From Candidatus Parcubacteria bacterium (GTDB lineage Bacteria > Patescibacteriota > Microgenomatia > UBA12405): 32,000 nucleotides of DNA. Position 1 is the first letter of the stretch; the number at the start of each line of letters is the position of its first letter. Location of the stretch: positions 1 through 32,000 of the forward strand of contig JAEZTF010000010.1 in the NCBI GenBank assembly GCA_023443725.1. Direction: 5' to 3'. The translations under genes and the position numbers were made by a program. Of this stretch, positions 1,886 through 32,000 are shown one piece after another. The notes beneath the pieces were generated by a model. That model made no database searches, was not told the DNA's origin, and was given only the letters and a program-made list of their open reading frames with translations.

Positions 1886-1955
1886 AGCTAAAAGATATAA
1901 TGGGCTTAAAGGAGATAAAACTACACTAAAAAATAAAAAAAGTGTTGTATTGAAA

Positions 1956-2920: not shown

Positions 2921-3110
2921 TCAATTTAATGATGATTATTGCTTTGTTTGTGATGATTATCAGACTTTTGAGCTGCTAATTTGTACATCTTGAAAAGTGA
3001 ATATTTGGCGGAAAGATAGATTTTCACTGCAACATTAAAATTGGGTGATATCTAGATTTTTATCTGAAGAATAGTCAGTGGCGGACGCGTTTTTCGATTT
3101 TAAGGGGGGG

Positions 3111-4476: not shown

Positions 4477-4477
4477 T

Positions 4478-4918: not shown

Positions 4919-5041
4919 AATTTTAATAAAAGGTGATCAAATACAACTAACTTTTGTTTTACCAATTATAAGGCGATTTTTAATCAAAATCTACACGATA
5001 GTAAAGGACGCAACTGTCAATAAAATCGTAAGATTAGGATA

Positions 5042-5254
5042 ATGTTGTCTAAAGAGAGACTTATAGAAAAATTTAGTAAAAAACTCAAGGAAGAAATGGG
5101 TAATATGAGCCAAGAATCTTTGGCGACTAAGTCTGGTTTGAATATCAGTTATATTGGTAGGCTTGAGCGAGGAGATGCTTGTCCAACAATTTATGCTGTC
5201 TACAAAATTGCTTTGGCTTTGAAAGTTAAACCTAGTGATTTGATGGAGTTATAA
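5042..5254 (+). CDS. XRE-family helix-turn-helix transcriptional regulator
   Basis: 70 aa. 'MSQESLATKSGLNISYIGRLERGD' is a classic HTH_3 motif. Confidence 0.8.
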   Translation: MLSKERLIEKFSKKLKEEMGNMSQESLATKSGLNISYIGRLERGDACPTIYAVYKIALALKVKPSDLMEL

Positions 5255-6493
5255 ATCTCCGCTTGGCAATTCTAGTGATTCGATTTTAGGTAACGCTTGA
5301 CCAGTTAAATCCTCAAGATCCCCATACATTCCGATAGTATTTTCAATTACTCTGTTAATTTGAGATTCTCTCTTTGCCCAAATTTTGGTGTAAGAGTCTT
5401 TTTCTTTTTGTAAATCGGTTCTCAATCCTCGGAACGCCTCGACAATTGCCTCAACTCTTTGATTAAAACCAGTGCCAGTTAAATAATTGAACAGAACTTC
5501 CATTTTTTCGTTTTTACCAACATTGGCTAATTTAAGAGAAGTTAATTGAAGAAGATTTGTTCTCAATGCTAATGCTAAACCTAAAAATGAGGCAAAATCT
5601 GTGATCCAAACTCCATCCTTTTGACCGAAATTCTTCATATCTTTCGGTAAAACAGTGGTAACTATAACTGCAATTTCTGCCTTTGCATTTCGTTGGTCAT
5701 CTTTTAATTTTGGAATCCAGTTGTCAGTCCAAGCTTTTGTGTGTTTTGACTCCCATACAATGGTTCCACAATGATGTCCGAAATTATCGAATACTTTTTG
5801 AGTGATATCCGCTCCATTCTCCCCTTTTCCAACTGGGATGATTTCATCTCTAGTAAATTCTGTTCTTAGTAACCCTTCTAATTCCAATTCTTGGACTTCT
5901 CCTTGAGTTTGTTGTGATCCTTGTTGAAGTTTTCTTTTTAGTTCATCATTCACCTTCATGGCATCAGTAAGTTGTTTTGATAATTCTGCTAATTTATATT
6001 GTTGCTCTTCAGATGCTTTTTTAGCTGCATCTTCAGTAATTTTCTTTCTTTCTTCATCAAGCTGTCTTTGTTTTTCTAATTCAAAGTTTTTCTTTTGATC
6101 CTCAAGCTCCAATTTTTCTTTTCTTAAATCAAGTTCAGCCTTTCTGGCCTCTTCAAGTTTTTTATCCTTTTCATCCAATTTTTCTGAAAGCATTTTGATT
6201 TCATCAGCCGATTCTTTTTTGGCTTCTTCCTTGATAATTTCTTTTAGTTTTGTCTTTTCAATTTCTAAAGCTTTTGAAACACCTTGGTTAACTAGCAGCT
6301 GAACATTGTTTCGAGCATCATTAATCCGTTTTTCTTGTTCTTCCAGTGCTTTTTTCTTTTGATCAATCTCATCTTCTTTGATCTTTTGATCTGCCTCAAA
6401 TTTCTTTCTTAATTCGTCACCAATTTGATGGGCTAAAACCTCATCAACTGATATTTCTGTACTACATTTTGGACAAATTATTTTTTGCGTCAT
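5249..6493 (-). CDS. DUF2130-like protein: N-terminal CxxC, long coiled coil, C-terminal PD-(D/E)xK-like nuclease core (RmuC-like architecture)
   Basis: 414 aa. 'IICPKCSTEISVDE' at the N-terminus. Residues about 25-205 are K/E/L-rich heptad-like. 'GADIT' (D229) and 'IVWESK' (E248-x-K250) are in nuclease-motif order. Its ATG overlaps the upstream stop (ATGA, 6490-6493). Confidence 0.7.
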   Translation of the reverse strand: MTQKIICPKCSTEISVDEVLAHQIGDELRKKFEADQKIKEDEIDQKKKALEEQEKRINDARNNVQLLVNQGVSKALEIEKTKLKEIIKEEAKKESADEIKMLSEKLDEKDKKLEEARKAELDLRKEKLELEDQKKNFELEKQRQLDEERKKITEDAAKKASEEQQYKLAELSKQLTDAMKVNDELKRKLQQGSQQTQGEVQELELEGLLRTEFTRDEIIPVGKGENGADITQKVFDNFGHHCGTIVWESKHTKAWTDNWIPKLKDDQRNAKAEIAVIVTTVLPKDMKNFGQKDGVWITDFASFLGLALALRTNLLQLTSLKLANVGKNEKMEVLFNYLTGTGFNQRVEAIVEAFRGLRTDLQKEKDSYTKIWAKRESQINRVIENTIGMYGDLEDLTGQALPKIESLELPSGDL

Positions 6494-9132: not shown

Positions 9133-11584
9133 TTCTTTGATTTATTTTTTCTTGGTAGAGCTCGATAAGTTTCTTTAGTGGTTCAATTATAGATTTCTCA
9201 TTTTCTATTTTTTCGATTATTTGCCTTTGTGTGTTTATCGAAGGTAAAGCAATTGTCAGCTCGTTTAAGTCCTCAGGATTTACACCAGACTGTCTCACTC
9301 TTCCTGATAATGAAATTATTTTCTTTTGAACGGGGTCTGAAGATAAAAAATAATAAAGCCAATCATTGGTAATTTTATTATTGTCTGGTAAACACTTCAT
9401 TAATGCAACGTTATACGCTCCTGTTTTGCCACGTAAAATTTGAAAAACTGGTGGTCCATATCTTCCAATCATAATATCGGTTTCGCTACAAGTTTTGTGT
9501 CTTGCAGATTTGGGAATATAAACTGCATTTTTGTCTGATTTATAATCTCTAATCTGAAGTAATCGTATATATCCTGTTTTTGGCGTATCGATAAATGTGG
9601 ATTTTGGAGGTTGAGTTCCACCAGCATAGCTACAAACTTCTCCCAATCTTACTTTTTTCCATTTTGGATCATTTTTGAAGATGGGTTTCCAATTCTCAAC
9701 CACTTGTTTTGCCCCGTCGATAATTTTTTGAAATTCGTCAATTTCTTTTACAATTTGTTTTTGAATTTCGATTGGTGGTAACGGTATCTGTTTTTGATAA
9801 GCATCGTTTCTATTTAATCCTGGCACTCCTGATTGGATTTTTAATTTTCCCAATTCAAGTTTTTTCAACATCCAAAAAAGATATTTCAATAAAATTTTTT
9901 CTTCATTTTCTAATTTGATGTAGAACGTTGTGTCTATTGGAAAACCTGATATTTCTGACATTGTAATTTCACCAGCAGACCCTTTTCTTCCAACAATAAT
10001 AAATGGCCCTTCAACAATGTATTGGTTATGAAAACCGATAATTCCAGACGAACCAAATACTGGGTAGTCGCCTGATTTTCTAGAATTTTCTTTTAATGGT
10101 TTTCCATATTCAAAAGTACAAATGTCACCTAATTTAGCTAAAGGATAATTTCCTTGGGTGTAAACGGTATTATCTTGATATTTGTCTCCATTTAATGAGT
10201 AATCTTCTTTTTCTTTTATTTTAGTAATTGGAATTAAATTGGCTTTTGATTTTGGCCCATGATCCAATAATATTGGTTTTAACCCTGGTTCTAATGGTTT
10301 TAATAATAACTCTCTGTAACCATTGATCCAATTTAATGCTTCAGGTAAGTCATTTTTATCTATTGGACGTTTGGTGGCTCCAAGATCGAAACCGTCATTT
10401 TCTACTTTTACAAAAAGGATATCTTTAACTTTGTTTTTGAGAGATTTGTCAAAAAAGAGAATACTAGTTTTAACTCCTGCATAAGGATTAAAAATTCCAC
10501 TAGGTAAAGAAACTACACACCAAAGACCAGCATCTTCAACCAACATTTGGCGAATTTTTTTATGGGCGTTTGTCGAATTAAAAACTACTCCTTCGGGAAC
10601 AATAACACCTGCTCGACCAGATGGTGAAAGATGGTCGATCATGTAACGTAAGAAGAGTAATTCTGTTGATCGAGTTCCCATTCTTAAATCTTCACTGACA
10701 CTGTCGATATCTAAAGCCCCAGCAAAAGGTGGATTGGCTAATATTACATCCCATTTGGTTCTATCCCCTGCGGTATCGACTAAGGTATTCTGTCTTTTCA
10801 TGTTTGGATGCTCGAGTTTATGAAGATAAAGATTCATAAGTCCGAATTTGAACATGTCAAAGTCACTGTCAAATCCAGTAAAGGTGTATTTGTAGACAAA
10901 ATCTCTTTCTTGAGGAGTTAATAAATCCATTGGATATTTATCAATTTTTTTGTACTCGTCTGATGAATATTTTTCTTCAAGATGTTTGAGAGCGGCAACT
11001 AAAAAACCTGCTGTACCACAAGCAGGGTCTAAAATTGTTTCGCCTTTTTTAGGATCGATAACATCGACTATAAATTTGATAATGTGTCGTGGAGTTCGAA
11101 ATGATCCAAGAGTACCAGCTTGAGAAAGTTTGCTTAATAAATATTCGTACATGTCACCAAAAATATCGGTGTGACCAGCGGTAGCTTGTTTTTCCAAATC
11201 AGAAAACATTTTTTCGATCTCATGGACTAATCTTCTTAATGTTGGTTTGTCAAAAACTTTTACATGAGCATCGCGGAAAAGTAATTTTATTGTTTGACTG
11301 GTGGTTATCTCTGGGAGTTTTCGAAAGACTTCTTCAAGGGAGTTAAATAATTCATCAGCATTAAGAATTAAGAGATTGTCCCAGTGATATTTTCTTAATT
11401 CTCCACTAAAAATTTTTTCGGCAGATGGATCAAGGATCATGGCATTATCGTCTTTTCTAGAAAGAGATCTTAAAAAGACAAGATAATTTATTTGTTCAAT
11501 GATGGTGGCATGACTAGCGACTCCAGCACCGAAAAGAATATTCATTAAATTGTCTACTTGGTTTTTGAAATCTGTTTGGGTCAT
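9107..11584 (-). CDS. hsdM: Type I R-M methyltransferase fused to a complete two-TRD specificity subunit (HsdM-HsdS fusion)
   Basis: 825 aa. 'DPACGTAGF' (AdoMet motif I, 186-194) and 'NPPF' (284-287). From about residue 480 there are two target-recognition domains ('LGDICTFEYGKPL...', 'LGEVCSYAGGTQPPKS...'). They are separated and followed by conserved helical spacers ('IPLPPIEIQKQIVKEID', 'LPSINTQRQIIEKIE'). Confidence 0.85.
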   Translation of the reverse strand: MTQTDFKNQVDNLMNILFGAGVASHATIIEQINYLVFLRSLSRKDDNAMILDPSAEKIFSGELRKYHWDNLLILNADELFNSLEEVFRKLPEITTSQTIKLLFRDAHVKVFDKPTLRRLVHEIEKMFSDLEKQATAGHTDIFGDMYEYLLSKLSQAGTLGSFRTPRHIIKFIVDVIDPKKGETILDPACGTAGFLVAALKHLEEKYSSDEYKKIDKYPMDLLTPQERDFVYKYTFTGFDSDFDMFKFGLMNLYLHKLEHPNMKRQNTLVDTAGDRTKWDVILANPPFAGALDIDSVSEDLRMGTRSTELLFLRYMIDHLSPSGRAGVIVPEGVVFNSTNAHKKIRQMLVEDAGLWCVVSLPSGIFNPYAGVKTSILFFDKSLKNKVKDILFVKVENDGFDLGATKRPIDKNDLPEALNWINGYRELLLKPLEPGLKPILLDHGPKSKANLIPITKIKEKEDYSLNGDKYQDNTVYTQGNYPLAKLGDICTFEYGKPLKENSRKSGDYPVFGSSGIIGFHNQYIVEGPFIIVGRKGSAGEITMSEISGFPIDTTFYIKLENEEKILLKYLFWMLKKLELGKLKIQSGVPGLNRNDAYQKQIPLPPIEIQKQIVKEIDEFQKIIDGAKQVVENWKPIFKNDPKWKKVRLGEVCSYAGGTQPPKSTFIDTPKTGYIRLLQIRDYKSDKNAVYIPKSARHKTCSETDIMIGRYGPPVFQILRGKTGAYNVALMKCLPDNNKITNDWLYYFLSSDPVQKKIISLSGRVRQSGVNPEDLNELTIALPSINTQRQIIEKIENEKSIIEPLKKLIELYQEKINQRIEEVWGEQ

Positions 11585-13959
11585 AGGTTGAGAATTCGAC
11601 TATCTTTAACTTCCAAAACCATATTAATTAAATTATCTCTTCCAAAGATATTAACCCATTCATCTGGGGTAAAAGTATTGAAAGGACTAGTATTCAAAAA
11701 TAAGATATTTGGTGATTTTTTGATTTCGTTTCTTAATTCTTTATTTTGAATTAATTCATCGATAAGTAATTTGACCATCATGACTTTTTGTTGTGATCCG
11801 CCAGTAGTAGCCTCGCCATATTTTTCGACGATTCCATCTTTCCATTCTTTTAATTGTTGATCTCGATTTGGTAATTCTTTTTTACCAATGGCTGATAAAA
11901 AGAAATCTCTGATAGTGGCGACGACTTGGTGAGATTCGATTAAAGTTTCTTCATTAAAATAAAGTTCTGGTTTGTTGAGCAATTCAGTATTAATGATTTC
12001 TAATAATTCGTCTTGTCTGTTTTCGTCTTCGGCAATTTGTTTGATATCTGGTCGACTCTCGGCAAATTTAATGACTGTTTTTGTCCAATCGCTTTGATAC
12101 ATTTCTCGATCAACTCTGTCGCCATTTGGGCCATAAATAAGCTCATCTCTTCCATTAACAAAATCAAGACGATTAATGATTGGTTTATCTCCATAATCAA
12201 TAATGACTCCAGGACCTTCTCCTATTGGTTGTTCGATGACTCCTGTTTCTCCTGGGGATGGTCTTTCAATTGGTTTGGCTGATTCTTCAGTGACTTTTAG
12301 TGGTGCTGTCCAATCATATGTTTCTTCAAAATACTGACAAACACCGCAGAAATCGAAAATGACAAATTCTTTTTTATCAATTTCTTTACAAAGACGAGTA
12401 CCCCGACCTTTAATTTGTTGGTAAAGAGTTGGTTCAAAAACTGGTCGACAAAGAACAATATTTAGAATCTCTGGAGCATCGAATCCAGTGGTTAACATAT
12501 CAACAGAAACGGCAATTCGAGGTAATTGAATATCAAGATTTCTAAAGTCTTTGGCCAACTCATGAGCACCTTTCACTTGACTGGTAATGGTTTGTGCAAA
12601 ACGGCCATTAAATTCTGGTCTGAGATTATTCAATATTTTTTCGAGAGCTAAAGCATGTCTTTGATTGACGGCAAAAATTATAGTTTTACCAATTTCATTT
12701 GTTGGAGTTTTTAAGGCATATTCTAAAAACTCTTTCATCATTAATTCGTTTCTTTTGGGAATTGAGACTTTCTTTTCGATATCAGTTATTTTGTAATTTT
12801 CATTTTCAAAATCACCTTCACCAGCTAACCCTTGATCGCTTAAGGCTTGTTGAGTAATATCAGAAGTCATTTTGTGAAGTTTGGCAGGGACTAGATATCC
12901 ATCTTTAACTCCGTCTTGAATGTTATATTGATAAGTGGCTTTGCCGTCTTCACATCCGAAATATCGATAAGTACTTCTTTGAATTCTTAACTCAACAGCT
13001 CTTGGATCATCAAGACCCAATTTATTAATATCAATGTTTTTTAGGAAGTCTTTTGGAGTGGCGGTTAAACCAATTCTGGTAGCTCCAACAAAATAATCCA
13101 TTATTCCCCTAGCTTCGGCTGAATAAATACTTCGGTGAGCTTCGTCATGGATAATTAAATCAAAATATCCTGGAGTAAAAACATCTCTTCCGTGAGCGAT
13201 TAATGATTGGATAGTAGCGACGACGATATTGGCTCCAGTTAAATTCTTTTTTGATTCTCCCCAGTAAGTGGCAATAGCTGATAAGTTTCCAAGAAGTTTT
13301 TCAAATGATCCTTTTGTTTGACGAGCTAATTCAATTCGATCGACTACAAATAAAACAGTTTGAGCTTGATTTGTTTTGATAAATTTGGAAATGATAAGAG
13401 CAGATAAAACAGTTTTTCCTGTACCTGTGGCCATCTCCAATAAAAATCCTCTTTTGCCTTGATCGTATTCATTAGCAATGGCATTGAAAGCATCAATTTG
13501 ATAAGGTCGAAGTTTAATATCGGAATTAATATCTGAAAAATAATCGGAGCTTATAGGTTTTTGATTAAGAGGTTCACTAATTTTGGCTGATCTGGTTTGT
13601 CTTTTTCTAACTAAATCGTCTTGAGAAAAGAAAGCTGGAACTGGGGTGGCATCACCACCAGAATTAAAATCCCAAAAATAAATGATATGATCATTGGCTA
13701 AAAAAATATAATCGATATTTCCTTTGTACTGTAAATCGGCATAATCAAAAGATTGTTTCTTGGCTGAATAAGGATCAATATCTGGGGCTTTGGCTTCGAT
13801 TAGAGCTATTGGTTTTCCATGTTTGTCCTTAAGAACGTAGTCGGCCCTACCTGCTACACCATGATCTTCAAAAACAACTTGATTAGTATCAAAAATGTCC
13901 CAACCTACATCTTTAAGATGTTGATCGATAACTGCTCTTGAATAAGCTTCTTTTGGCAT
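11581..13959 (-). CDS. hsdR: Type I restriction enzyme R subunit (PD-(D/E)xK nuclease + SF2 DEAH translocase)
   Basis: 792 aa. N-terminal 'GRADYVL...IALIEAKA' (D40, E55-x-K57). Walker A 'ATGTGKT' (177-183). 'DEAH' (272-275). Motif VI 'QQIKGRGTR'. Its stop overlaps the hsdM-S start (ATGA, 11581-11584). Confidence 0.85.
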   Translation of the reverse strand: MPKEAYSRAVIDQHLKDVGWDIFDTNQVVFEDHGVAGRADYVLKDKHGKPIALIEAKAPDIDPYSAKKQSFDYADLQYKGNIDYIFLANDHIIYFWDFNSGGDATPVPAFFSQDDLVRKRQTRSAKISEPLNQKPISSDYFSDINSDIKLRPYQIDAFNAIANEYDQGKRGFLLEMATGTGKTVLSALIISKFIKTNQAQTVLFVVDRIELARQTKGSFEKLLGNLSAIATYWGESKKNLTGANIVVATIQSLIAHGRDVFTPGYFDLIIHDEAHRSIYSAEARGIMDYFVGATRIGLTATPKDFLKNIDINKLGLDDPRAVELRIQRSTYRYFGCEDGKATYQYNIQDGVKDGYLVPAKLHKMTSDITQQALSDQGLAGEGDFENENYKITDIEKKVSIPKRNELMMKEFLEYALKTPTNEIGKTIIFAVNQRHALALEKILNNLRPEFNGRFAQTITSQVKGAHELAKDFRNLDIQLPRIAVSVDMLTTGFDAPEILNIVLCRPVFEPTLYQQIKGRGTRLCKEIDKKEFVIFDFCGVCQYFEETYDWTAPLKVTEESAKPIERPSPGETGVIEQPIGEGPGVIIDYGDKPIINRLDFVNGRDELIYGPNGDRVDREMYQSDWTKTVIKFAESRPDIKQIAEDENRQDELLEIINTELLNKPELYFNEETLIESHQVVATIRDFFLSAIGKKELPNRDQQLKEWKDGIVEKYGEATTGGSQQKVMMVKLLIDELIQNKELRNEIKKSPNILFLNTSPFNTFTPDEWVNIFGRDNLINMVLEVKDSRILNL

Positions 13960-14786: not shown

Positions 14787-15443
14787 TTATTTTTTAAGAG
14801 AGACGATTTGTTTTATTAATCTGATTTGATGACGAAGAACGATTAGAATAGACCCAAATAAAACTGGTAGAAATAATTTTGGTTCTATAAGAGAAATAAT
14901 TGGTATAGCGATAAGTTCACCAATTAAACGACCGATGATTTGATCGGAAATTGATTGAAAAATAATTTTTGAAGTAATCTGTTGATGATTGAATATTCGA
15001 AAAATAATTTCTGTAATTAGAGATGAAAGAAAAATAATTAATAGCCAATATAAAAAAATAGAAAAACGAAAATACATTAATATTCCCATAAAACAAGCAG
15101 CTCCCCTACCGCCTTTACCTTTTAACCAAATTGGATAATTGTGTCCTAAAATAACAAATAAGGTGGAAAGAGAAGTTGTGATTGTAAAATTTAAATTAAA
15201 TTTAAGTGATAAATAAATGGCAGTAGCGGCTTTAAAACAATCAAACAACCAAACAAAAAGAAAACTGAGAATAGCCACAAATAGACCTTTTTCTTTTTTA
15301 GTAATTCGAAGAGTATTCATGGCTCCCATATTTCCAGAATCGCTAGATCGAACATCTTTTTTGGTAACAATTTTTACTAAAATAAGAGCTGTTGGAATGG
15401 AGCCTAAAAGATAAGAAATAAAACAAATTAATATATAGTTCAT
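14787..15443 (-). CDS. plsY: Acyl-phosphate:glycerol-3-phosphate acyltransferase PlsY, divergent paralog
   Basis: 218 aa, multi-pass. 'LLGSIPTALIL...SDSGNMGAMNTLR' and 'LKGKGGRGAA' correspond to the PlsY motifs. Its ATG overlaps the upstream stop (15440-15443). Confidence 0.7.
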   Translation of the reverse strand: MNYILICFISYLLGSIPTALILVKIVTKKDVRSSDSGNMGAMNTLRITKKEKGLFVAILSFLFVWLFDCFKAATAIYLSLKFNLNFTITTSLSTLFVILGHNYPIWLKGKGGRGAACFMGILMYFRFSIFLYWLLIIFLSSLITEIIFRIFNHQQITSKIIFQSISDQIIGRLIGELIAIPIISLIEPKLFLPVLFGSILIVLRHQIRLIKQIVSLKK

Positions 15444-17242
15444 ATGTTTTGAAGTAAAACTCCAATTGAAATTGAATCTGGACCTCCGTGAATTCCTAAA
15501 ACTGGAGATAATAATGAGCTATGGATAATTTCAAATTTTTTGGGATCAAGTTTTTGAATAAGTTGTCTGATAACTTTATCATCACAACTGTGTTGAATAA
15601 TTACCTTTAATGGTAAATTATTAATATTATTTTTTTTAGCTATCTGATTTAAGTATTTATTAATTAAAAAAGAAACACTTTTATGGCCAAAATAGATTCT
15701 CATAATACCGATACTTTTGGGGGTTAAATATAGTGTTGGTCGAAAATTAAATTTTTGAGCAAAGTTAACTATTTTAGCTTTGTTTCCAGCCACTCTACCA
15801 CCTTTGACAGCCCACGATATTTTGTCTGGGATGACAAAAACTTTAAGATGATTACTAACACTAAAAAGTGTTTTTTCAATTTGTTGAGATGAATAACCTT
15901 GTTTAATCAACTCAACAGCTTTGATAGTTAAAAAACCTTGTCCTGGACCAACTTGTCGGAAATCTGGAATAATAACTCGATTTTGATCTGAAGTAGGTAA
16001 AAAAGACCTAGCCTGAAGTGAACTATTGTATGAACCAGAAATAGCAGATGAGGCAGTGATACACATAACAATATTGTATTTTTGAAGTTGTTCTTTAAAA
16101 GCATTTAAAAAAGCTTGAGGTGATGGTTGTGAAGTTTTGGGCCAGCCATATTTTTCAGTTTGATTTTCAAAAAGTTTCATTTTTTGATAAATAGAAATTT
16201 TTGGATCACTTATTTTTTGATCAACTTTTTCCCATTTAGCTTTGAATTGAACTACAGAAATATCGTTTTCTAAAGTAAAGTCAGGATCTAGACTAGCGGT
16301 ACTATCGACAACTAAACCAGTTGATTGTCTGTGATCATTATTACCTTCGACTTGTTGGGTCATATCAGTAGTTTTAATATTGATGACTGTACCGTATTGA
16401 GAAATTAAATTAACTACTTCATCAGGTAAATCTGTATGGATATGAATTTTAACTTTTTGATTAGCCTGAACAATATCGAGACAATTACCGTAATTAATTA
16501 ATTGATCGATAATTTTTTCTTTAGTTATTTTTGGTGATTGGATTAAAGAAATAACTTCATAACGATGATCAATTATCTGTAGAAAACTAGTGGTTTTTTG
16601 GGATATTTTTTGGGGAATATTAAAATGATATTTTTTACCATTTAATCCATCAAGAAAACCTTCTAACATCAAAAGAAAACCATAACCACCAGCATCAACA
16701 GTATTAGTTTTTTGATATAAATCCATTTTTAATTGAGTAGCATCTAGGGAAATTTTGGCTTTTTTAATAGCTTCTTGAAGGTTTTGTTGAAAGCTGTTTT
16801 TAGTAGAATTGGAAAAACTATCATTACTTGCTTGAATAACATCTAGAATAGTTCCTTCTTTTGGGTTTTGAATTGATTCATAAGCAGATATCATGCCTTG
16901 AGAAAAAGCTTGGTTAAAATCGGAAATGGAAATATTGTTATTAGACAGGTTTGATAAAAAACCATTTAAAAAACCAGTGACAATAATACCGACATTTCCA
17001 GATGCATTACAAATGGCTCCATCAACGGCCGTGTCTCGAAGTTGAGTTATATTTGAAAATTTTTTTTGATCAATAGCGTCGTAAACTCCTTGTAAAGTGG
17101 CGGTTAAATTATCTCCTGTATCTTTATCTGGTACAGGAAACATATTAATTGAATTTATTTGTTCTTTCTTGGAAATAACTTTTTGATAAGCTGAAATTAG
17201 CATTCGACGAAGAGTTTCCGGAGTAAGAAATTGAGACTTCAT
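15440..17242 (-). CDS. DAK2-domain / DegV-like fatty acid kinase subunit (FakA/YloV-like)
   Basis: 600 aa. N-terminal DAK2/DhaL-like 'PDKDTGDNLTATL'. The C-terminal half has a DegV-type 'GLVVDSTASLDPDF...ISVV' start. Confidence 0.7.
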   Translation of the reverse strand: MKSQFLTPETLRRMLISAYQKVISKKEQINSINMFPVPDKDTGDNLTATLQGVYDAIDQKKFSNITQLRDTAVDGAICNASGNVGIIVTGFLNGFLSNLSNNNISISDFNQAFSQGMISAYESIQNPKEGTILDVIQASNDSFSNSTKNSFQQNLQEAIKKAKISLDATQLKMDLYQKTNTVDAGGYGFLLMLEGFLDGLNGKKYHFNIPQKISQKTTSFLQIIDHRYEVISLIQSPKITKEKIIDQLINYGNCLDIVQANQKVKIHIHTDLPDEVVNLISQYGTVINIKTTDMTQQVEGNNDHRQSTGLVVDSTASLDPDFTLENDISVVQFKAKWEKVDQKISDPKISIYQKMKLFENQTEKYGWPKTSQPSPQAFLNAFKEQLQKYNIVMCITASSAISGSYNSSLQARSFLPTSDQNRVIIPDFRQVGPGQGFLTIKAVELIKQGYSSQQIEKTLFSVSNHLKVFVIPDKISWAVKGGRVAGNKAKIVNFAQKFNFRPTLYLTPKSIGIMRIYFGHKSVSFLINKYLNQIAKKNNINNLPLKVIIQHSCDDKVIRQLIQKLDPKKFEIIHSSLLSPVLGIHGGPDSISIGVLLQNI

Positions 17243-17247
17243 TATGG

Positions 17248-17907
17248 TTAGAAAAATTTAGAGATAGAGTCTTGAAATTCTTTAAGTAATTTTGCCATTG
17301 GTTTTTTGGCAGCTAGTCCAACTGAAATACCAATAGCTAAACTGATAGCCAGAGCAAAACCAATAAAAATAATGATGATTAATTGAGGAACAATTTGTAA
17401 TTGAAAAAGAATAGCTAAAAATGTAAGAACTCTGATAGACCAATCAATTATCTTGGCTAAAAATCTTGAATAAGTGATTTCTTTTGAAGTTTTAGTACCA
17501 ACAACAATTTTTTGAATAAAGTCGATACTATAAATAGAAATTATAAAAATAATAATAGAAATAAAAATATTTGGGTAATAAAGAATAATCTTTGTTAAAA
17601 GATTGGATAAAGCAAAAAGACTAACGGCTTCACAAAAAAACATAGCAAAAAGAGTAATAAAAAAAAGTTGAACCACAATGGCGATTAACTTTCCAACATC
17701 AATATTTGGTTCAAATTTTTTGACTGTTCCGCTTAATCCAACTCGACTAATAGCACTATCAAAGTGAATATTTTTTAGAAATTCAAGACAAATTTTTTTG
17801 ACCCAAAAAGCAACTAGCACACCTGCTAAAAAAAGAATGAAAGCACGAATTAAATCTATTTGAGTAGTATTAGTAAGATTAAGAATATTTAAAAGAAACC
17901 AATTCAT
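17248..17907 (-). CDS. Integral membrane protein, function unknown
   Basis: 219 aa with about 5 hydrophobic helices. It sits inside the plsY-fakA operon, and its start overlaps the plsY stop (17904-17907). Confidence 0.55.
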   Translation of the reverse strand: MNWFLLNILNLTNTTQIDLIRAFILFLAGVLVAFWVKKICLEFLKNIHFDSAISRVGLSGTVKKFEPNIDVGKLIAIVVQLFFITLFAMFFCEAVSLFALSNLLTKIILYYPNIFISIIIFIISIYSIDFIQKIVVGTKTSKEITYSRFLAKIIDWSIRVLTFLAILFQLQIVPQLIIIIFIGFALAISLAIGISVGLAAKKPMAKLLKEFQDSISKFF

Positions 17908-18494
17908 ATTTTATTTTCCTTTCCTTTAATTAGTTTTTTAATATTTTTTTGGTGAGCTATAAAAATAACAAAAGTAAGAATTGTACCTATGACAATACTA
18001 GCAAAAGAATGAAATTTAATCCAGAAAAATATAGGAAATGAAATAGCCATGATTAAATTAGTTAAGCTCATGAGTCGACTAATAACTAAAATTAATAGCC
18101 AAAAAATAAACCAGATTAAAATGAATTTCCAGCCAAAAATGGCAGCTAATAAACCGTAAGTACAACTAACACCCTTACCACCCTTAAATCTTAAAAATAT
18201 AGAAAAAACATGACCGAAAATTGGTAATAAAGATAAAATTAATTTTTCAATTAAACTGACTTGAGGTAGAGAGAAAACAAATAAACAAAAAAAATATGAT
18301 TTTAAAAAATCTAAAACACCAACAATTAAAAAACCTTTGATACCAAATTTGCGAGAAATATTGGTAGCGCCAATATTACCACTACCAAATTGTCGAATAT
18401 CTAGATGATTAATTTTGCCAAAAATATATCCAAAAGGAATGCTACCAATTAAATAACCTAAAAAGAAAAGAACTACAAAATAGATGTTCACCAA
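17904..18494 (-). CDS. plsY: Acyl-phosphate:glycerol-3-phosphate acyltransferase PlsY
   Basis: 196 aa. 'GYLIGSIPFGYIFGK...DIRQFGSGNIGATN' and 'FKGGKGV' are canonical PlsY motifs. Confidence 0.9.
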   Translation of the reverse strand: MVNIYFVVLFFLGYLIGSIPFGYIFGKINHLDIRQFGSGNIGATNISRKFGIKGFLIVGVLDFLKSYFFCLFVFSLPQVSLIEKLILSLLPIFGHVFSIFLRFKGGKGVSCTYGLLAAIFGWKFILIWFIFWLLILVISRLMSLTNLIMAISFPIFFWIKFHSFASIVIGTILTFVIFIAHQKNIKKLIKGKENKI

Positions 18495-26995: not shown

Positions 26996-28042
26996 TTAAA
27001 CTTTAACTTTTTCATTATAGCATTTTTGAGCGGTTTCAATTTCTTTTTCGCCGGTTCTAGATTGTGGTTCTATAAATCTAAGTTTAAGAAAATTATAAAG
27101 CTTTTCTTCAGTATCAAAAGTATTAGTTTTACCTGTTTTAAGGTCTTTTATGCCATATTCTGAAATAGATAAACCCAAAGACAAAGCATATTTTCGAAGT
27201 AAAATATTGTGTTGTCTTGAGCCAGTAAAATGTTGAACTAAAGAAGCAAAGTTTTTACTTGGCTGAACCATGATATCAACTCTAATATCGGGATAAATTT
27301 TTATAGAAGCTTTTTTGGTGCCGATATCTAAAGTTTGGATATTATCGGGATAAGATATAAAGTGCTCTAAAATTGGTCTAGAATCATTTGATTTGGCAGC
27401 TATATCAATATCACCAACAGTTGAACTTTGGCGACGAAGACTACCTAAAGCGACAAACTCAATTTGAGGAAATTTTTGTTTTAAAAAAACAATAATTTTA
27501 TCGGCTATCATTTTAGCTTCACTGTATTTCATCCGACGAGATTGACCTAAAAAAGCCAAACTGTTTTCTAAAATAACTTTTTCTGATTTTTCTCCAAAAT
27601 GAGGCCAATTTCTAATTTTCTGATTTTGAGCATATTCAATTAACTGGTTGACAGAAACTAAGGGATTTTTAGAAAATTTTAATTTTTTAGTCAGGGTGTA
27701 GGCAATTTTTGGTCCGATACTATTTATTTTAGTAAAAGTAAAAACGGCAGGATGAATGTTTTTAAAAGCTTTAATAATATCGGGATGTAATTTATTTTTT
27801 TCGAGTAAGTAAGATATTTTTTTAAAAATATTTGGGCCGATACCAGGGATATTATCAACTAAACTAGGATCTTTTTGGTAAAGTTTTTGGATAGACTTTG
27901 GATAACTAATGATAGTTTCTGCAGCGTCTTGATAAGATTTGATTCGAAAATAATCTTTACCTTTGATTTCGTAGGCGGTGGCAATATTTTGAAGAATTTC
28001 AGCTATATCAGAATTGGAATAGATTTTAGATCTATTAATCAC
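26996..28042 (-). CDS. Family X DNA polymerase, core only (no C-terminal PHP domain)
   Basis: 348 aa. 'IAEILQNIATAYEIKGKDYFRIKSYQDAAETI' (HhH N-terminus), 'IPGIGP', nucleotidyltransferase 'GSLRRQSSTVGDIDI'. Confidence 0.8.
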   Translation of the reverse strand: MINRSKIYSNSDIAEILQNIATAYEIKGKDYFRIKSYQDAAETIISYPKSIQKLYQKDPSLVDNIPGIGPNIFKKISYLLEKNKLHPDIIKAFKNIHPAVFTFTKINSIGPKIAYTLTKKLKFSKNPLVSVNQLIEYAQNQKIRNWPHFGEKSEKVILENSLAFLGQSRRMKYSEAKMIADKIIVFLKQKFPQIEFVALGSLRRQSSTVGDIDIAAKSNDSRPILEHFISYPDNIQTLDIGTKKASIKIYPDIRVDIMVQPSKNFASLVQHFTGSRQHNILLRKYALSLGLSISEYGIKDLKTGKTNTFDTEEKLYNFLKLRFIEPQSRTGEKEIETAQKCYNEKVKV

Positions 28043-28113
28043 ACTTATTATTATAAATCATTGTTTTGAATTAAAAGTTTTGATATAGTATCTATACTTT
28101 AAGACCGACTTAA

Positions 28114-28187
28114 GGGCTCGTGGTGCAGCGGTCTAGCACATCCGCCTGTCACGCGGAAGATCGTGGGTTCGAATCCCATCGGGCCCG
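28114..28187 (+). tRNA. tRNA-Asp (anticodon GUC)
   Basis: Cloverleaf: acceptor GGGCTCG/CGGGCCC, D GTGC/GCAC, anticodon stem TCCGC/GCGGA with loop CTGTCAC, T GTGGG-TTCGAAT-CCCAT, discriminator G. 74 nt, no encoded CCA. Confidence 0.95.
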
Positions 28188-28197
28188 CAAAGTAATT

Positions 28198-28218
28198 AAT
28201 CCCCTATTTTAGGGGATT
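28198..28218 (+). terminator. Hairpin terminator after tRNA-Asp (copy 0 of the cassette hairpin)
   Basis: AATCCCCT-ATTTT-AGGGGATT, 8-bp stem. It also lies just 3' of the convergent ORF 28239..28973. Confidence 0.6.
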
Positions 28219-28238
28219 AATTAATGATGGTAGTGAAA

Positions 28239-28973
28239 CTATTTTCCTAAAAATATATCTAATAAACTTCGTCTTGTTTTAGGTTTGGCTCCGTATTCTG
28301 TTTTTAAATATTCAAATCCTTTTGGAATATGTGGATCTGGTATATGTGGTGAACAATCTCGATCAGCTGTTTCTACTAATTTTGTTAAAAGACCTGGTTT
28401 AGAGAGAAGTATTGGTTCAATTTTTGAATAATCACGTCTCTTGGAACAATCTTCTAATAATATTTGATGTAACTTATCTTTATCTTCTTCATTTTCTGCT
28501 AAAGGTATTAATATTGATTTTTCTGCGTAATCTCTAGCAATAAAAATAGATAAACAATCCGTACTAATTATTAAATATGGTCTTGTGTCAAATGCTTTTT
28601 CGTCTGTTGAATCTGGGTTTCCCTTATCATCACAATAAGATTGTGGAGGTATATAACTTATAGTATGGGTATGTAATTTGTATTGGGGTTTTAAATGTGT
28701 ATTTTTTTTAAATTCTTCAAAATCTTTAGGGCTTTTCTCTATCTCTCCAATTTTCCAAACTTGATCTCTTATTTCTTGAAGTGTAGTTGATATTCCTAAT
28801 TTATCTAACAATTCAAATCCAGGTAAAATTTCACTTCTGTAACGTTCTTCTAATTTAATAATTACTTCTCTTTCTTTTGTTTGTTTAGATAATAATTGAG
28901 CATCTTTTTCATTTCTATCATTTTCGGCTTGTTGTTGTAAAAAATTAATTCTTTCGCTTTCCCAGTTTGTCAT
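28239..28973 (-). CDS. Cassette protein A, unknown function (paralog of 29150..29884)
   Basis: 244 aa. Shares MTNW start, an alignable N-terminal region of about 90 aa (..LL.., IP.F..LD, L.EI.DQV, PKDF) and an identical C-terminal RRSLLDIFLGK with cassette B. No known domain recognised. Confidence 0.6.
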   Translation of the reverse strand: MTNWESERINFLQQQAENDRNEKDAQLLSKQTKEREVIIKLEERYRSEILPGFELLDKLGISTTLQEIRDQVWKIGEIEKSPKDFEEFKKNTHLKPQYKLHTHTISYIPPQSYCDDKGNPDSTDEKAFDTRPYLIISTDCLSIFIARDYAEKSILIPLAENEEDKDKLHQILLEDCSKRRDYSKIEPILLSKPGLLTKLVETADRDCSPHIPDPHIPKGFEYLKTEYGAKPKTRRSLLDIFLGK

Positions 28974-28980
28974 TTTTTAT

Positions 28981-29102
28981 TTATCGTTATTTAACGGATA
29001 ATATCGAGTATATTACTTTTTTCTACTTTTTCAATATAGAAATGTTACTTTTGAGATCAAAATCTATCAAAAACGTTCCAACTTCGTCCCACACGGCCCG
29101 TA
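28981..29102. repeat. Cassette arm copy 1: promoter/5'UTR of cassette A plus degenerate tRNA-Asp 3' end (29083-29102)
   Basis: 118/120 identical to 29891-30010. TTCGTCCCACACGGCCCG matches the tRNA T-loop/acceptor 3' strand at 17 of 22 aligned positions. Confidence 0.85.
29007..29034 (-). promoter_or_regulatory. Sigma-70-like promoter of cassette A
   Basis: Minus strand TTGAAA (29034-29029), a 16-nt spacer, then TATACT (29012-29007), about 35 nt upstream of the ATG at 28973. The same sequence recurs at 29917-29944 and 30635-30662. Confidence 0.5.
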
Positions 29103-29110
29103 AATGAATT

Positions 29111-29129
29111 ATCCCCTATCTTAGGGGAT
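29111..29129. terminator. Cassette hairpin copy 1
   Basis: ATCCCCT-ATCTT-AGGGGAT followed by T7 on the plus strand. Lies 3' of ORF 29150..29884. Confidence 0.55.
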
Positions 29130-29149
29130 TTTTTTGTGTGTTGGTAAAA

Positions 29150-29884
29150 TTATTTTCCTAAGAATATATCTAATAAACTTCGTCTTTGTTTTTGTCGTTG
29201 TAGTTGATTGTATCTTAACAGTAAATCTTTGCGCGAATTGACATATTCTCTACGTCTGATTAATACTGAGCAATATTCTACCAAATGATTTTTAATTAAT
29301 TCATTTATTTCTTCTACTGTGTTTTTATTAAGTTCAATATGAATACCACTTATTTCTAAATAAGTCCCATCAGATACTACCTTAATTGTTTCGTACCCTT
29401 CCTTGACATATTCACTCTCAACACCATCTCCGTCTGTACTTGAGTAATAGATTAGTCTTTTTGGTCCGGCTAATACATATGTTGCATGTGGACAATTTTG
29501 ACCAATATCTCTTTTATCTTCTTCGGTTAAATCAAAATTATTGTTTGGTGGTAAATTATCGAATTTTGTTATAAAACGATGATAGGAACTATCCCATATA
29601 TCACGTAATGATAATTCTTTATGTTGATTAAAATCTTTTGGGGTTTTTATTATTTGACCTCCACCAAGAACTTGATCTTTTATTTCGCTTAGTCTTTCAG
29701 GGATATGAAAACTATCTAAAATATGAAAACTAGGAATCACTCTGTTTTCATAGTTTATTTTTAGTTCGTTGATAATTTGATTTTCTCTTCGTTCATTACC
29801 TCTTAATAATTGAGTCTGTCCGGTTTGAAATTCAGTTTGTTCTTGAGCTCTTAGTCTTGTTATTTCAGCATTCCAGTTTGTCAT
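29150..29884 (-). CDS. Cassette protein B, unknown function (paralog of 28239..28973)
   Basis: 244 aa, the same length as A. Same MTNW start and RRSLLDIFLGK end. The central and C-terminal body is not alignable by eye. Confidence 0.6.
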   Translation of the reverse strand: MTNWNAEITRLRAQEQTEFQTGQTQLLRGNERRENQIINELKINYENRVIPSFHILDSFHIPERLSEIKDQVLGGGQIIKTPKDFNQHKELSLRDIWDSSYHRFITKFDNLPPNNNFDLTEEDKRDIGQNCPHATYVLAGPKRLIYYSSTDGDGVESEYVKEGYETIKVVSDGTYLEISGIHIELNKNTVEEINELIKNHLVEYCSVLIRRREYVNSRKDLLLRYNQLQRQKQRRSLLDIFLGK

Positions 29885-29890
29885 TTTTTT

Positions 29891-30012
29891 TTATCGTTAT
29901 TTAATGGATGATATCGAGTATATTACTTTTTTCTACTTTTTCAATATAGAAATGTTACTTTTGAGATCAAAATCTATCAAAAACGTTCCAACTTCGTCCC
30001 ACACGGCCCGCA
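29891..30012. repeat. Cassette arm copy 2: promoter/5'UTR of cassette B plus degenerate tRNA-Asp 3' end (29993-30012)
   Basis: See copy 1. In addition, 30005-30041 is 37/37 identical to 28182-28218 (tRNA 3' end + spacer + hairpin). Confidence 0.85.
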
Positions 30013-30020
30013 AAGTAATT

Positions 30021-30041
30021 AATCCCCTATTTTAGGGGATT
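30021..30041. terminator. Cassette hairpin copy 2
   Basis: AATCCCCT-ATTTT-AGGGGATT followed by a T-run on the plus strand. Lies 3' of ORF 30055..30609. Confidence 0.55.
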
Positions 30042-30054
30042 TTTTAATGAAATC

Positions 30055-30609
30055 TTATGGATATTTAAGAAAATCAACTGATCCAGTTTTTTCTATTCTT
30101 TGATTATGTTTAAAAATCGCAATAACGGTAGCTAATTCGTTTAGAACTTCATTTCTTTGTGATATCATTTTTGCACGCATATCATAATGAGAACAGGTTT
30201 CTCCTTTGTTTTCCCACCAACAAGTATTGTCTTCTACGCTTCTATTGTAACAACCAACTTGGTAACCGACTTGAGTTTTTACAACTCCTATTGCTTCTTT
30301 TGTAATATTAAAGTAACCGCTATAATCACCACTACCTTCAATCCAATGTTTGCAGTCTGTGTACACTAAAAAATAACCAGGGAACGAAAATGATGCCCCA
30401 GTTTCTATATGAATTGGTTTATCTGAATTCCCTTTTATAGTTATAATTCCTTTATCAATTACTTCTTGAAAAGCTGATACTACACCAAGATCAGTAAGGT
30501 CTTTTTGTGCTTCTGTAATATTTCTTTGTGATTCATTTCCACAAACACCGTTAATATTTTGTTGGGCGGAATTAACTCGATCAAGAAAACTAGGTCTTTC
30601 TGTAGGCAT
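30055..30609 (-). CDS. Cassette protein C, unknown function (unrelated to A/B by eye)
   Basis: 184 aa, Cys/Trp/Gly-rich ('CWWENKGETCSHYD'). Driven by the same conserved arm as A and B. No family recognised. Confidence 0.55.
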   Translation of the reverse strand: MPTERPSFLDRVNSAQQNINGVCGNESQRNITEAQKDLTDLGVVSAFQEVIDKGIITIKGNSDKPIHIETGASFSFPGYFLVYTDCKHWIEGSGDYSGYFNITKEAIGVVKTQVGYQVGCYNRSVEDNTCWWENKGETCSHYDMRAKMISQRNEVLNELATVIAIFKHNQRIEKTGSVDFLKYP

Positions 30610-30614
30610 TTTGT

Positions 30615-30705
30615 TTATTTAACGGATAATATCGAGTATATTACTTTTTTCTACTTTTTCAATATAGAAATATTACTTTTGCGATCAAAATCTATCAAAA
30701 AACGT
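30615..30705. repeat. Cassette arm copy 3 (promoter/5'UTR of cassette C; no tRNA-like end)
   Basis: About 91 nt matching copies 1 and 2 with 2 substitutions and 1 single-base indel. Similarity stops exactly at ...ATCAAAAAACGT. Confidence 0.8.
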
Positions 30706-30749
30706 ACTATATTTATTTAATTATCTATTTCGTAGTTGTATAATTTGGA

Positions 30750-31172
30750 ATGGAGATAGAAATATTAAAAAAGTCGGATATAGAATCATATAAAGCGTTA
30801 ATCGATGAATGTTTTGATGGAAGTAATAGTATTTCTGAATATGAAAAATACGACACAGAAGCTAATTATAAAATTATAGTGGCGAAAAATGGAAATAAAG
30901 TTGTTGGAAGTGTTACTTTTTACAAATTAGATTTGTTTACTTTTTCTTTTCAACCAGCATTAGAAGTTTTTAATGTGGCAGTATTAAAAGAATATCGAGG
31001 TCAAAAAATTGCTAAAAAACTTTTTGAATATGTTATTGATTATGCCAAGAAAAATGGTTACAAATCGATAAATTTGACTTGTTTAGATACGGCTATATCG
31101 GCTCATAAACTTTATGAAAGTATTGGTTTTGTAAAAGCTAGTAGCATTAAATATAATTTTTATTTAAAATAG
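30750..31172 (+). CDS. GNAT family N-acetyltransferase
   Basis: 140 aa. 'VAVLKEYRGQKIAKKLFEYVIDYAKKNGY' is the acetyl-CoA binding motif A (R/Q-x-x-G-x-A/G type). Confidence 0.85.
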   Translation: MEIEILKKSDIESYKALIDECFDGSNSISEYEKYDTEANYKIIVAKNGNKVVGSVTFYKLDLFTFSFQPALEVFNVAVLKEYRGQKIAKKLFEYVIDYAKKNGYKSINLTCLDTAISAHKLYESIGFVKASSIKYNFYLK

Positions 31173-31203
31173 TTTTTATTTTAGTTTTTTATTCTAAAGA
31201 AAA

Positions 31204-31229
31204 GCCGTATAAATAGGTATTTATACGGC
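31204..31229. terminator. Bidirectional hairpin between convergent genes
   Basis: GCCGTATAAATA-GG-TATTTATACGGC, perfect 12-nt inverted repeat between the GNAT stop and the stop of 31250..31642. Confidence 0.6.
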
Positions 31230-31249
31230 GTGGGTGCCAAAAAAGAGTG

Positions 31250-31642
31250 TTAATTTTGTTCAGGTGAAACGAATGATGCTTTGGCTTCTTCGTAATAAAA
31301 AGATAGGTTTGGATCTGCACATTTGTCAATGTCTTTGGTAATCATTTCCAATCTGACATCGGACTTGGCGGTGGCGATGAACTGTTGGAGAATGAAAATT
31401 GCCAGATTATTGTTTTCTTCGGAGTCGATAGCTGGATGATCTATGAAATTGGTTTTAATAATTCCAAGATCGGTTTCGTCTGTTGTTTGACTGGTGATTT
31501 CTTTGACTTTGTCGTAGAAAGCCATAATCGTTTTGGGATTTTTTTTACAGACCCTTAGTTCTGGAATCAGTCCGACAATTTCTACTACAGTTTTGGCGGC
31601 TTCAATCTTACTTTTCAACATTTTAAACACACTCCTTTTCAA
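31250..31642 (-). CDS. Hypothetical protein
   Basis: 130 aa ORF with ordinary amino-acid composition. No motif recognised. Confidence 0.45.
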   Translation of the reverse strand: MKRSVFKMLKSKIEAAKTVVEIVGLIPELRVCKKNPKTIMAFYDKVKEITSQTTDETDLGIIKTNFIDHPAIDSEENNNLAIFILQQFIATAKSDVRLEMITKDIDKCADPNLSFYYEEAKASFVSPEQN

Positions 31643-31747
31643 TGTTCTTTCTTACTTTTTTGAAAAACGCTATCGTTCTTCGGGGTAATCGGATTATAAC
31701 ACTCAAAGTGATTTACTTAAAAAAAATGAATAAAGTATAATGTAGCC

Positions 31748-32000
31748 ATGATTAAATTTATTTATTTTGACTTTGGGGCGGTATTAGTTAATTATGATAA
31801 TGTTTTTACAAAAGTTTGTAATGATTTTGGTTTAGACAAAAATGAATTTAAAAATTTTTATAACAATTTTGTAGATGAAATGGATGTGGGTAAGGATAGT
31901 GTTGATGGATTTTGGAAAAAATGTGTGGAAAATTTTAATCTCAATAATGGTTTAAATTATAAATTGGCAAAATCTTGGGTGTCGGATTATAAAATTATTA
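31748..32000 (+). CDS. HAD-superfamily hydrolase-like protein, 5' partial (runs off the window)
   Basis: Hand translation MIKFIYFDFGAVLVNYDN... resembles HAD motif I of the FDxGxVL subtype. The frame is open to the window end. Confidence 0.45.
   Translation, partial: MIKFIYFDFGAVLVNYDNVFTKVCNDFGLDKNEFKNFYNNFVDEMDVGKDSVDGFWKKCVENFNLNNGLNYKLAKSWVSDYKII

Follow-up and report, generated by a model that had tools for sequence, protein, structure and literature searches.

A tRNA-Asp-anchored array of single-gene cassettes with shared promoter arms in a candidate phyla radiation genome

Layout of the cassette array

We analyzed a 32,000-nucleotide stretch of DNA from Candidatus Parcubacteria bacterium (the window; positions 1 to 32,000 of contig JAEZTF010000010.1, assembly GCA_023443725.1), in which three head-to-tail transcription units on the minus strand, cassettes C, B, and A in that order, span positions 30703 down to 28190. 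The array is anchored by a plus-strand tRNA-Asp(GTC) gene (28114-28188; called by ARAGORN, Rfam score 67.3 bits) that is convergent with cassette A. The original prediction, made from the sequence alone, had described two open reading frames (ORFs) for proteins of exactly 244 residues and one for a protein of 184 residues behind the same upstream arm, and the ORF list confirmed this. Genes A (28239-28973) and B (29150-29884; 28.5% identical to A) encode 244-residue proteins of one orphan family with the ends MTNWE...KRSFLDKLFG; gene C (30055-30609) encodes a 184-residue protein of a second orphan family, with a sequence profile unrelated to that of A/B. A promoter/5'-untranslated region (UTR) arm of ∼100 nt, common to all three, precedes each gene (arm A, 28974-29074; arm B, 29885-29984; arm C, 30610-30703; all minus strand), and a terminator hairpin lies 3' of each (28198-28218 for A, 29110-29130 for B, and 30021-30041 for C). 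The hairpin of cassette A, AATCCCCTATTTTAGGGGATT, is bidirectional, being common to the tRNA and gene A, and belongs to repeat families D2 and I2. Following the hairpins of C and B is a 27-nt minus-strand relic of the tRNA-Asp 3' end, GCGGGCCGTGTGGGACGAAGTTGGAAC at 29985-30011 and ACGGGCCGTGTGGGACGAAGTTGGAAC at 29075-29101 (family D2), which resembles an attachment (att) site, and following the hairpin of A is the complete tRNA itself. The array can therefore be written as n repeats of arm, gene, hairpin, and tRNA 3' piece, the final piece being the real tRNA, with A and B units spaced at 910/911 nt. Because no relic lies upstream of arm C, this arm is the distal end of the array. The order C-B-A is identical in three independent assemblies (L005, L006, and L007), so it is not an assembly artifact.

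Beyond arm C stands a left boundary gene of a variable family (31204-31642, minus strand; 123/130 residues) with its own terminator (31229-31204), homologues of which stand before the first cassette in four related loci (L004, L013, L016, and L020). A GNAT acetyltransferase gene (30750-31172, plus strand) lies in the opposite orientation between this terminator and arm C. It is missing from that position in L020, which belongs to the same species as the window, and in L004, and is thus a further presence/absence variant of the island.

Each arm contains an upstream TTTGATAGATTTTGA box (29071-29055 in A, 29981-29965 in B, and 30699-30683 in C), a near-consensus promoter of TTGAAA, 16 nt, and TATACT (in arm A, -35 at 29034-29029 and -10 at 29012-29007; 29948-29917 in B and 30666-30635 in C), and an A/U-rich 5'UTR with the conserved box ATTATCCGTTAAA (29002-28990 in A, 29912-29896 in B, and 30630-30614 in C). 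The 35-nt promoter core occurs in three exact copies in the window against 0.00 expected in 100 shuffles, and the upstream box likewise occurs three times. The terminator hairpin AATCCCCTAAAATAGGGGATT found 3' of every cassette gene has a folding z of -5.4 (-17.5 kcal/mol for the hairpin of cassette A). The 5'UTRs are unstructured (z 0.1-1.0), and a riboswitch or leader RNA was rejected for this reason. An Rfam search over 27900-30900, at the gathering threshold and at E<=1, returned only the tRNA and one chance subthreshold leader match.

The relics and hairpins were overlooked in the original prediction. The last 16 nt of the tRNA together with 38 nt downstream of it are repeated after B and C, for example at 29997-30050, with 91% identity over 54 nt (family D2), and all relics differ from the present tRNA by the same three derived substitutions and the same 2-nt deletion. 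The arms are direct and not inverted repeats; a miniature inverted-repeat transposable element was rejected because terminal inverted repeats are absent and, within the window, the arms are confined to this locus.

We next aligned cassettes A and B globally and scored identity in 30-nt windows. Three consecutive windows (29090-29001) were identical at 30 of 30 positions and the next, which enters the ATG, at 27 of 30; the body windows fell to 11-21 of 30, and identity recovered to 26 of 30 over 28261-28232. The first four codons (ATG ACA AAC TGG) are the same in both genes, as are 10 of the 11 tail codons, and 35 of the last 39 nt match. The pattern proposed earlier, near-perfect arm identity through codon 4, collapse, and recovery in the tail, was thus borne out. 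The razor-sharp breakpoints claimed for it are present as well, but they arise in part from protein-level conservation of the two termini and not from recombination alone.

The same locus in related genomes

To place the array in context, we compared it with a wider sample of about 30 related loci, mostly metagenomic contigs. A framework of LysM, HTH_5, NDK, variable region, tRNA-Asp, PolX, LemA, M48 peptidase, and DnaE genes is conserved, and the tRNA-Asp is 100% identical in five related genomes. The cassettes of the variable region always end in a block formed by hairpin and relic. This block bounds cassettes in L004, L008, L009, L010, L011, L013, L016-18, and L020 as well as in 11 further loci, with up to five or more sites each, that were recovered by a pattern scan of the JGI metagenomes; in most loci it adjoins tRNA-Asp(GTC). 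The cassette edges are constant, one following TTGGAAC(GTTTTT) and the other preceding the A-run ahead of the hairpin, and the cargo between them is unrelated from one cassette to the next and occurs in both orientations. Reading toward the tRNA from the distal end, L011 holds a reversed 342-residue gene, a cupin gene, an A/B-family gene, and RidA; L013 an A/B-family and then a C-family gene; L009 a 171-residue gene, a C-family gene, and an A/B-family gene; and L016 an A/B-family gene, a reversed 348-residue gene, and a second A/B-family gene. In the JGI loci the cargo consists mainly of orphan genes, plus radical SAM and TnsA-like genes, in either orientation.

The arms and the bodies of the cassettes diverge differently between genomes. 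Relative to the window, the arms are 90-93% identical in L013 (housekeeping DNA 82-91%), 92-96% in L017 (87-88%), 88-90% in L011 (81-87%), and 77-82% in L009 (72-76%), and hence the arms evolve at the genome-background rate or slightly slower. The bodies, at 25-40% amino acid identity between genomes, are unrelated to genome distance: protein A matches the L009 allele, from the most distant genome, at 38% identity and the L013 allele, from the closest, at 31% (housekeeping DNA 88-91%), and C is 40% identical to its L013 counterpart, while the DnaE DNA of the two is 91% identical. In addition, L009 and L010, at 81% identity in NDK, carry a P0004 coding sequence without a single difference over 654 nt, and the window and L004 share a C cassette at 97% identity beside a neighboring gene whose products are 40% identical. 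Divergence of arms (77-96%) and bodies in parallel, the outcome named in advance as one that would count against exchange, was therefore not seen, as only the arms follow housekeeping DNA (72-91%).

Turnover was observed directly at the strain level. L020 (flanks 94-98% identical to the window) contains C (98%) followed by a reversed 162-residue gene and lacks A, B, and the GNAT gene, and in L004 the C allele is the same but the reversed gene behind it is another one. Within the C allele, the ratio of nonsynonymous to synonymous substitutions (dN/dS) is 0.13-0.16, which indicates that the alleles are conserved functional genes that do not hypermutate. The ongoing diversifying selection suggested by the original prediction thus found no support in the short-term evolution within one allele, which is purifying, whereas its core proposal, that arms are homogenized and bodies exchanged between conserved arms, held in the wider sample.

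Within single genomes, arm identity varies from 95-97% overall in the window (98-100% in the core; 97-100% for arms A and B) to 81% in L009 and 73% in L013, and in the window even the arm spacer positions and the tRNA relic are identical between copies. In L002, a locus from another sample, arm A shows the arm-B state at its three diagnostic sites; this stretch is linked in one 141-mer to hairpin variants specific to the B-A junction, and so the flip is not an assembly path error. A is also closer to alleles in other genomes than to B, yet A and B have the same derived tail, RRSLLDIFLGK, in place of the family consensus KRSFLDKLFG. The near-identity of arms of the same genome, which is peculiar to the window lineage, the flipping sites, and the shared tail are evidence for gene conversion.

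Several loci depart from this layout. In L015 (2536-10579), an A/B-family gene follows NDK and a HAD gene, and the place of tRNA-Asp is taken by genes with Schlafen AlbA_2, FtsK_alpha, HTH_3, Peptidase_S26, and HTH_36 domains, a run that may be a larger integrated element. In L023 (1-1158; P0033), ∼790 nt of GC-richer, unrelated DNA with Shine-Dalgarno-led small ORFs are joined in frame to the 3' half of a C gene, the sequence being 95% identical to the window from position 794; the join reflects either a real insertion or recombination event within a cassette gene or a chimeric assembly. In L001 (1-2040), a Logan contig, window positions 31828-30615 are joined to 29076-28162 such that gene A lies behind the GNAT-side flank, and its arm is a mosaic of a C-type upstream part, the invariant core, and a B-type UTR; the arrangement stems either from a variant that has lost two cassettes or from an assembly path at k=31 across the invariant core of 42 nt. 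Across the tRNA from the array, PolX (26996-28042) is likewise unstable, being absent in L009 and called as only 270 residues in L013. Finally, synonymous divergence between the window and L020 is 0.20 in PolX and LemA and 0.03 in the adjacent M48 peptidase gene, which points to a recombination mosaic beside the tRNA.

One relative harbors a recombinase in the first slot of the array. In L033 (2555-7529), a 4.85-kb element lies between tRNA-Asp and a relic-hairpin block, ending exactly at this block. The L033 tRNA-Asp lacks the following hairpin and is directly abutted by a gene for a 486-residue large serine recombinase (Resolvase, Recombinase, and Zn ribbon domains); the element also encodes a Rep protein (REP_ORF2-G2P/RepSA-like) and three small ORFs. 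This geometry is the one predicted by integration into the T-loop/3' region of the tRNA, by which a new 3' end is supplied and the old 3' end and terminator are displaced. L028, whose flanks are 90% identical to those of L033 and whose tRNA region is identical, carries three small cassettes at this slot. The L033-type recombinase family is widespread in Microgenomates, and no relatives of the enzyme were found in viral contigs, where the relic pattern and a hypothetical attP pattern also gave 0 matches. No integrase or recombinase gene is present in 28000-32000 or among the flanking genes; of the relatives, only L033 has one abutting the tRNA. In L010, a noncoding stretch (2290-2490) between a hairpin and the P0004 cassette holds a second, fresher copy of a tRNA-Asp 3' end, ACGGGTCTGATGGGATT, which matches the tRNA variant of that genome and could be what is left of a more recent integration that has since decayed.

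The encoded proteins and other genes of the window

BLASTP aligned A and B over their whole length (29% identity, E 1e-15), and both fit one hidden Markov model (HMM) family. The proteins are thus homologous end to end and only the DNA of the bodies is unalignable, which overturns the earlier view that the proteins could not be aligned beyond ∼90 N-terminal residues. A word-indexed protein search with A and B returned nothing beyond the two query proteins; an exhaustive HMMER search gave 24 clusters of A/B-family proteins of 200-280 residues. Their alignment has three conserved regions, namely the M-T-N-W-E N terminus, an ILPGFxxLDxxxIxExLxEIRDQVW-GEI-K-P block, and the KRSFLDKLFG C terminus. 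N3 and W4 are kept in at least 90% of the members, so that the terminal tags noticed at first in A and B are conserved outside this genome, with both termini conserved and the middle variable. One named record assigns a family member to Candidatus Shapirobacteria, and a contig carrying the C cassette is labeled Candidatus Peribacteria; the host is therefore referred to here as Shapirobacteria-like. Many members come from contigs as long as one cassette (0.93-1.05 kb), as would be expected if assemblies break at the repeated arms. An exact scan for the promoter core gave 0 matches in JGI metagenomes and 1 in GTDB genomes.

The AlphaFold2 model of A (predicted local distance difference test (pLDDT) score 85.8) consists of a 55-residue N-terminal helix, a second helix, a β domain (77-154), and further helices, and it had no match at E<=0.001 in Foldseek searches of PDB and BFVD. 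For C (pLDDT 79.6), the predicted architecture is helix-sheet-helix, similar to that of A; Foldseek against PDB gave no match at E<=0.001, the best being actin-capping protein alpha (E 0.05, template modeling score 0.34), which is not significant. Two orphan families are thus defined, with confidently predicted folds that lack a structural match. Profile-profile comparison of the A/B and C families gave a homology probability of 1.5% and matched only a 9-residue motif. The A/B C-terminal KRSFLDKL (28239-28271 and 29150-29182) resembles the N-terminal ERPSFLDRV of the C family (30571-30609; ESFFNKL in L009); these 9 columns are the only ones aligned by hhalign, at E 0.035, which is not statistically significant. 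As judged from this resemblance, the motif may be a docking or membrane motif shared by two families behind the same promoter.

No significant Pfam match was obtained for A, B, or C; the PHROGs matches were weak and to unannotated families, and the single PADLOC match, to B, was weak as well (E 0.0051, a model annotated "Unknown"). Across these searches and the Foldseek searches above, no match to a known defense system or polymorphic toxin/immunity family emerged. The C-terminal amphipathic helix of MinD targets the protein to the membrane (PMC8155659). The A/B-family tail has the same spacing, F-L-x-x-L-F-G, in which basic residues precede the motif within the last ∼10 residues, as in the consensus KRSFLDKLFG. 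In E. coli, the MinD tail reads KGFLKRLFGG. However, A/B-family proteins are not ATPases and are unrelated to MinD, and in A and B themselves the tail is altered to RRSLLDIFLGK. In the model of A the tail is predicted as a short helix (237-241) in a block with pLDDT of about 70, and its hydrophobic moment is not above that of shuffled sequences, which was equally true of the MinD control sequence. Both the MinD-like spacing and the similar SFLDR[VL] motif at the N terminus of the C family are leads and not results.

Elsewhere in the window, the region 66-13959 looks like a defense or mobile island: after a resolvase-domain ORF (66-500) it contains genes for a DnaG-like primase (547-1437), a DUF2130 protein (5249-6493), a PHP/AAA_21/SMC-like ATPase of 880 residues (6490-9132), a fused N6-methylase and type I S domain protein (9107-11584), and a ResIII/HSDR_N helicase (11581-13959). 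In 14787-18494, PlsY (G3P_acyltransf) paralogues (14787-15443 and 17904-18494) surround a FakA-like Dak2/DegV gene and a gene with an MscS-type transmembrane helix.

Proposed assembly and maintenance of the array

Taken together, the region is best read as a tRNA-Asp-anchored island of autonomous single-gene cassettes in a Shapirobacteria-like genome of the candidate phyla radiation (CPR), built by integration and now maintained by homologous recombination and gene conversion in the arms, a reading to which we give a probability of roughly 0.6. Each cassette combines a near-consensus sigma-70-type promoter and a conserved, unstructured 5'UTR with a single accessory gene, and it closes with a bidirectional terminator hairpin and a tRNA-Asp relic of 27 nt. 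The relics and hairpins would be displaced copies of the tRNA 3' end with its terminator left by integration at the tRNA, and this att-like, tRNA-fragment anatomy explains why the arms exist. The 60-190-nt conserved arms could then act as homology anchors, gene conversion probably homogenizing them within a genome and spilling into the first 4 and last 11 codons of A/B, while whole cassettes or bodies would be gained, lost, and replaced through exchange with related genomes. In this view the bodies are alleles or paralogues of great age and deep divergence that change little over short times, and part of the arm conservation reflects ordinary purifying selection on a shared cis-regulatory module that drives the A/B and C families. 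Recombination, conversion, and cis-element selection together account for noncoding DNA that is better conserved than coding DNA. The data show directly the anatomy itself, the contrast in conservation, the strain-level turnover, the flipping of arm sites between copies, and a recombinase element in one slot. From these we infer the order of events and homologous rather than site-specific recombination as the route of present-day exchange, and any function of the proteins would likewise be inferred.

Several points weigh against this interpretation. No recombinase lies in or adjoins the array in the window or in most relatives, and integration is deduced from L033 and the relic anatomy. The derived changes common to the relics argue for descent from one copy and not for independent fresh integrations; they fit spread by homologous recombination or duplication and weaken the case for serial integration. 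In addition, n cassettes are accompanied by n att-like copies and not n+1, which requires that the distal cassette was the tRNA's original neighbor. The deletion-like L001 locus, with arm A behind GNAT and neither C nor B, could be the k-mer path described above. Most loci being metagenomic contigs, strain assignment rests on flank identity, and the bodies are saturated for direct recombination-breakpoint analysis (GARD/RDP).

We therefore also considered whether the array is an integron-like site-specific platform in which hairpin and relic form a functional site, an attC analogue or pseudo-attB, at which a large serine recombinase supplied in trans captures, excises, and reshuffles single-gene cassettes. 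The precise cassette edges, constant around unrelated cargo in both orientations, are what such a platform would produce, as are relics conserved across genomes at least as well as coding DNA, and the L033 element, bounded by tRNA and relic, provides a recombinase/Rep candidate from a family common in Microgenomates. The many family members on cassette-length contigs of 0.93-1.05 kb could be counted on the same side, but assembly breaks at repeats explain them equally well. Further, the window and most arrays lack an adjacent recombinase gene: the sole serine recombinase of the window, the resolvase-domain ORF at 66-500, was not linked to the array, as it is a 144-residue catalytic-domain fragment, 28 kb away and with 26% identity to the enzyme of L033. 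Serine integrases recombine attP with attB or attL with attR, and an attR x attR pair is not known to be a substrate; moreover, the T-arm dyad has been lost from the relics, and no attP-type junction was found in viral contigs. On balance, we regard a site-specific platform as doubtful. The same doubt attaches to its fuller form, in which the relic is a working site of a Microgenomates integron-like serine-recombinase capture platform that reorders own-promoter cassettes at the tRNA, and A/B and C are coregulated cargo sharing a docking or membrane motif, SFLD[KR][LV], at opposite ends.

A purely local history, in which a cassette and tRNA end were tandemly duplicated and the bodies diversified in place behind arms kept by selection or conversion, with no exchange between genomes, would suit the 910/911-nt spacing, the equal coding lengths, the paralogy of A and B, and the family-wide conservation of the arm motifs. 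However, it cannot put unrelated genes (C, cupin, RidA, radical SAM, and reversed genes) behind the same boundaries. Nor does it fit body divergence that is not proportional to genome divergence, an identical cassette in genomes with NDK identity of 81%, the differing content of same-species genomes, or the short-term dN/dS of 0.13-0.16. The wider sample has already largely refuted this history, and we consider it unlikely.

Less likely still is that the arms are merely constrained promoter, operator, and terminator sequences whose identity arose by purifying selection without recombination. The -35, -10, and +1 boxes are kept in L019, in another genomic context and with a protein only 27% identical, and in L008, within a range of 27-35%, and this survival indicates that part of the arm conservation is plain selection; moreover, arms of different genomes are only 3-5 points more identical than housekeeping DNA. 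Against this explanation, spacer positions and the nonfunctional relic are identical in the window, whereas the arms within other genomes are free to differ, at 73-81% identity. Polymorphic sites also switch from one arm copy to another between samples, and a genome-specific tail is common to paralogues whose closer relatives are, for each, alleles elsewhere. Targeted hypermutation or phase variation (a diversity-generating retroelement or an invertase shufflon) or an assembly artifact is highly improbable and was rejected on repeat anatomy and assembly agreement: CPR genomes often carry diversity-generating retroelements and the window has the resolvase-domain ORF, but neither a reverse transcriptase nor a template/variable repeat pair is present at the locus, the arms are direct and not inverted, A and B differ across the whole body, including indels, and three assemblies agree on the order.

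Among known systems, the array works like tRNA-linked serial-integration islands and looks like an integron or a cluster of attC sites lacking an integrase (CALIN), and it fails the defining tests of both. The Prochlorococcus tycheposon islands are bounded on one side by a full tRNA, with partial tRNA copies dispersed in their interior (bioRxiv 10.1101/2020.12.28.424599). As in those islands, newcomers in the array push older elements inward, degenerate remnants persist, and strain-variable cargo is carried by a streamlined genome. The array differs in that its units are single genes of ∼0.6-1 kb with their own promoter and terminator, its host is a CPR bacterium, and its relics are one diverged sequence type shared across genomes; the window has no integrase and replication module of the tycheposon type, and the L033 element, the only intact one seen, combines a large serine recombinase with Rep, compared with the tyrosine recombinase and replication modules of tycheposons. 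Of the features expected of a tRNA island, the array thus has an intact boundary tRNA and direct repeats of the tRNA 3' end, diverged and with none at the distal end, and the window lacks an integrase gene beside the att site.

Integrons and CALINs consist of tandem single-gene cassettes separated by a short hairpin site, with mostly orphan and sometimes reversed cargo and an integrase that is often not adjacent. The array likewise has tandem single-gene cassettes with a hairpin-containing repeat, orphan cargo, some of it reversed, and no adjacent integrase. Its cassettes, in contrast, carry their own strong promoter, and its repeat is a tRNA 3' relic with an intrinsic terminator and not an attC site (R''/L''/L'/R'): sequence inspection found no GTTRRRY/RYYYAAC pair in the repeat. 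The array has no IntI tyrosine recombinase, attI, or Pc promoter, and no Phage_integrase domain turned up when the ORFs of the window were scanned with Pfam. Hypervariable loci of the capsule or O-antigen type and other balanced polymorphisms, which are exchanged by homologous recombination, have conserved flanks at background divergence, deep alleles that do not follow the genome tree, and purifying selection within alleles. All three properties recur in the array, but its noncoding arms of ∼100-190 nt are tandemly repeated in one locus, which allows conversion within the genome as well. A literature search returned no description of such cassette arrays in CPR bacteria.

CPR bacteria have tiny genomes and few recognized mobile elements, and the turnover of their accessory genes is poorly understood. 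The locus described here is a compact, recurrent hot spot at which this turnover can be read directly. Its boundaries are defined, a recombinase element is available as a candidate, presence and absence vary at the strain level, and there is evidence of both gene conversion and horizontal exchange. Its conserved promoter/5'UTR module could serve as an expression element for CPR bacteria and as a marker for further cassettes. If the relic is an active site, the array would be a serine-recombinase analogue of the integron.

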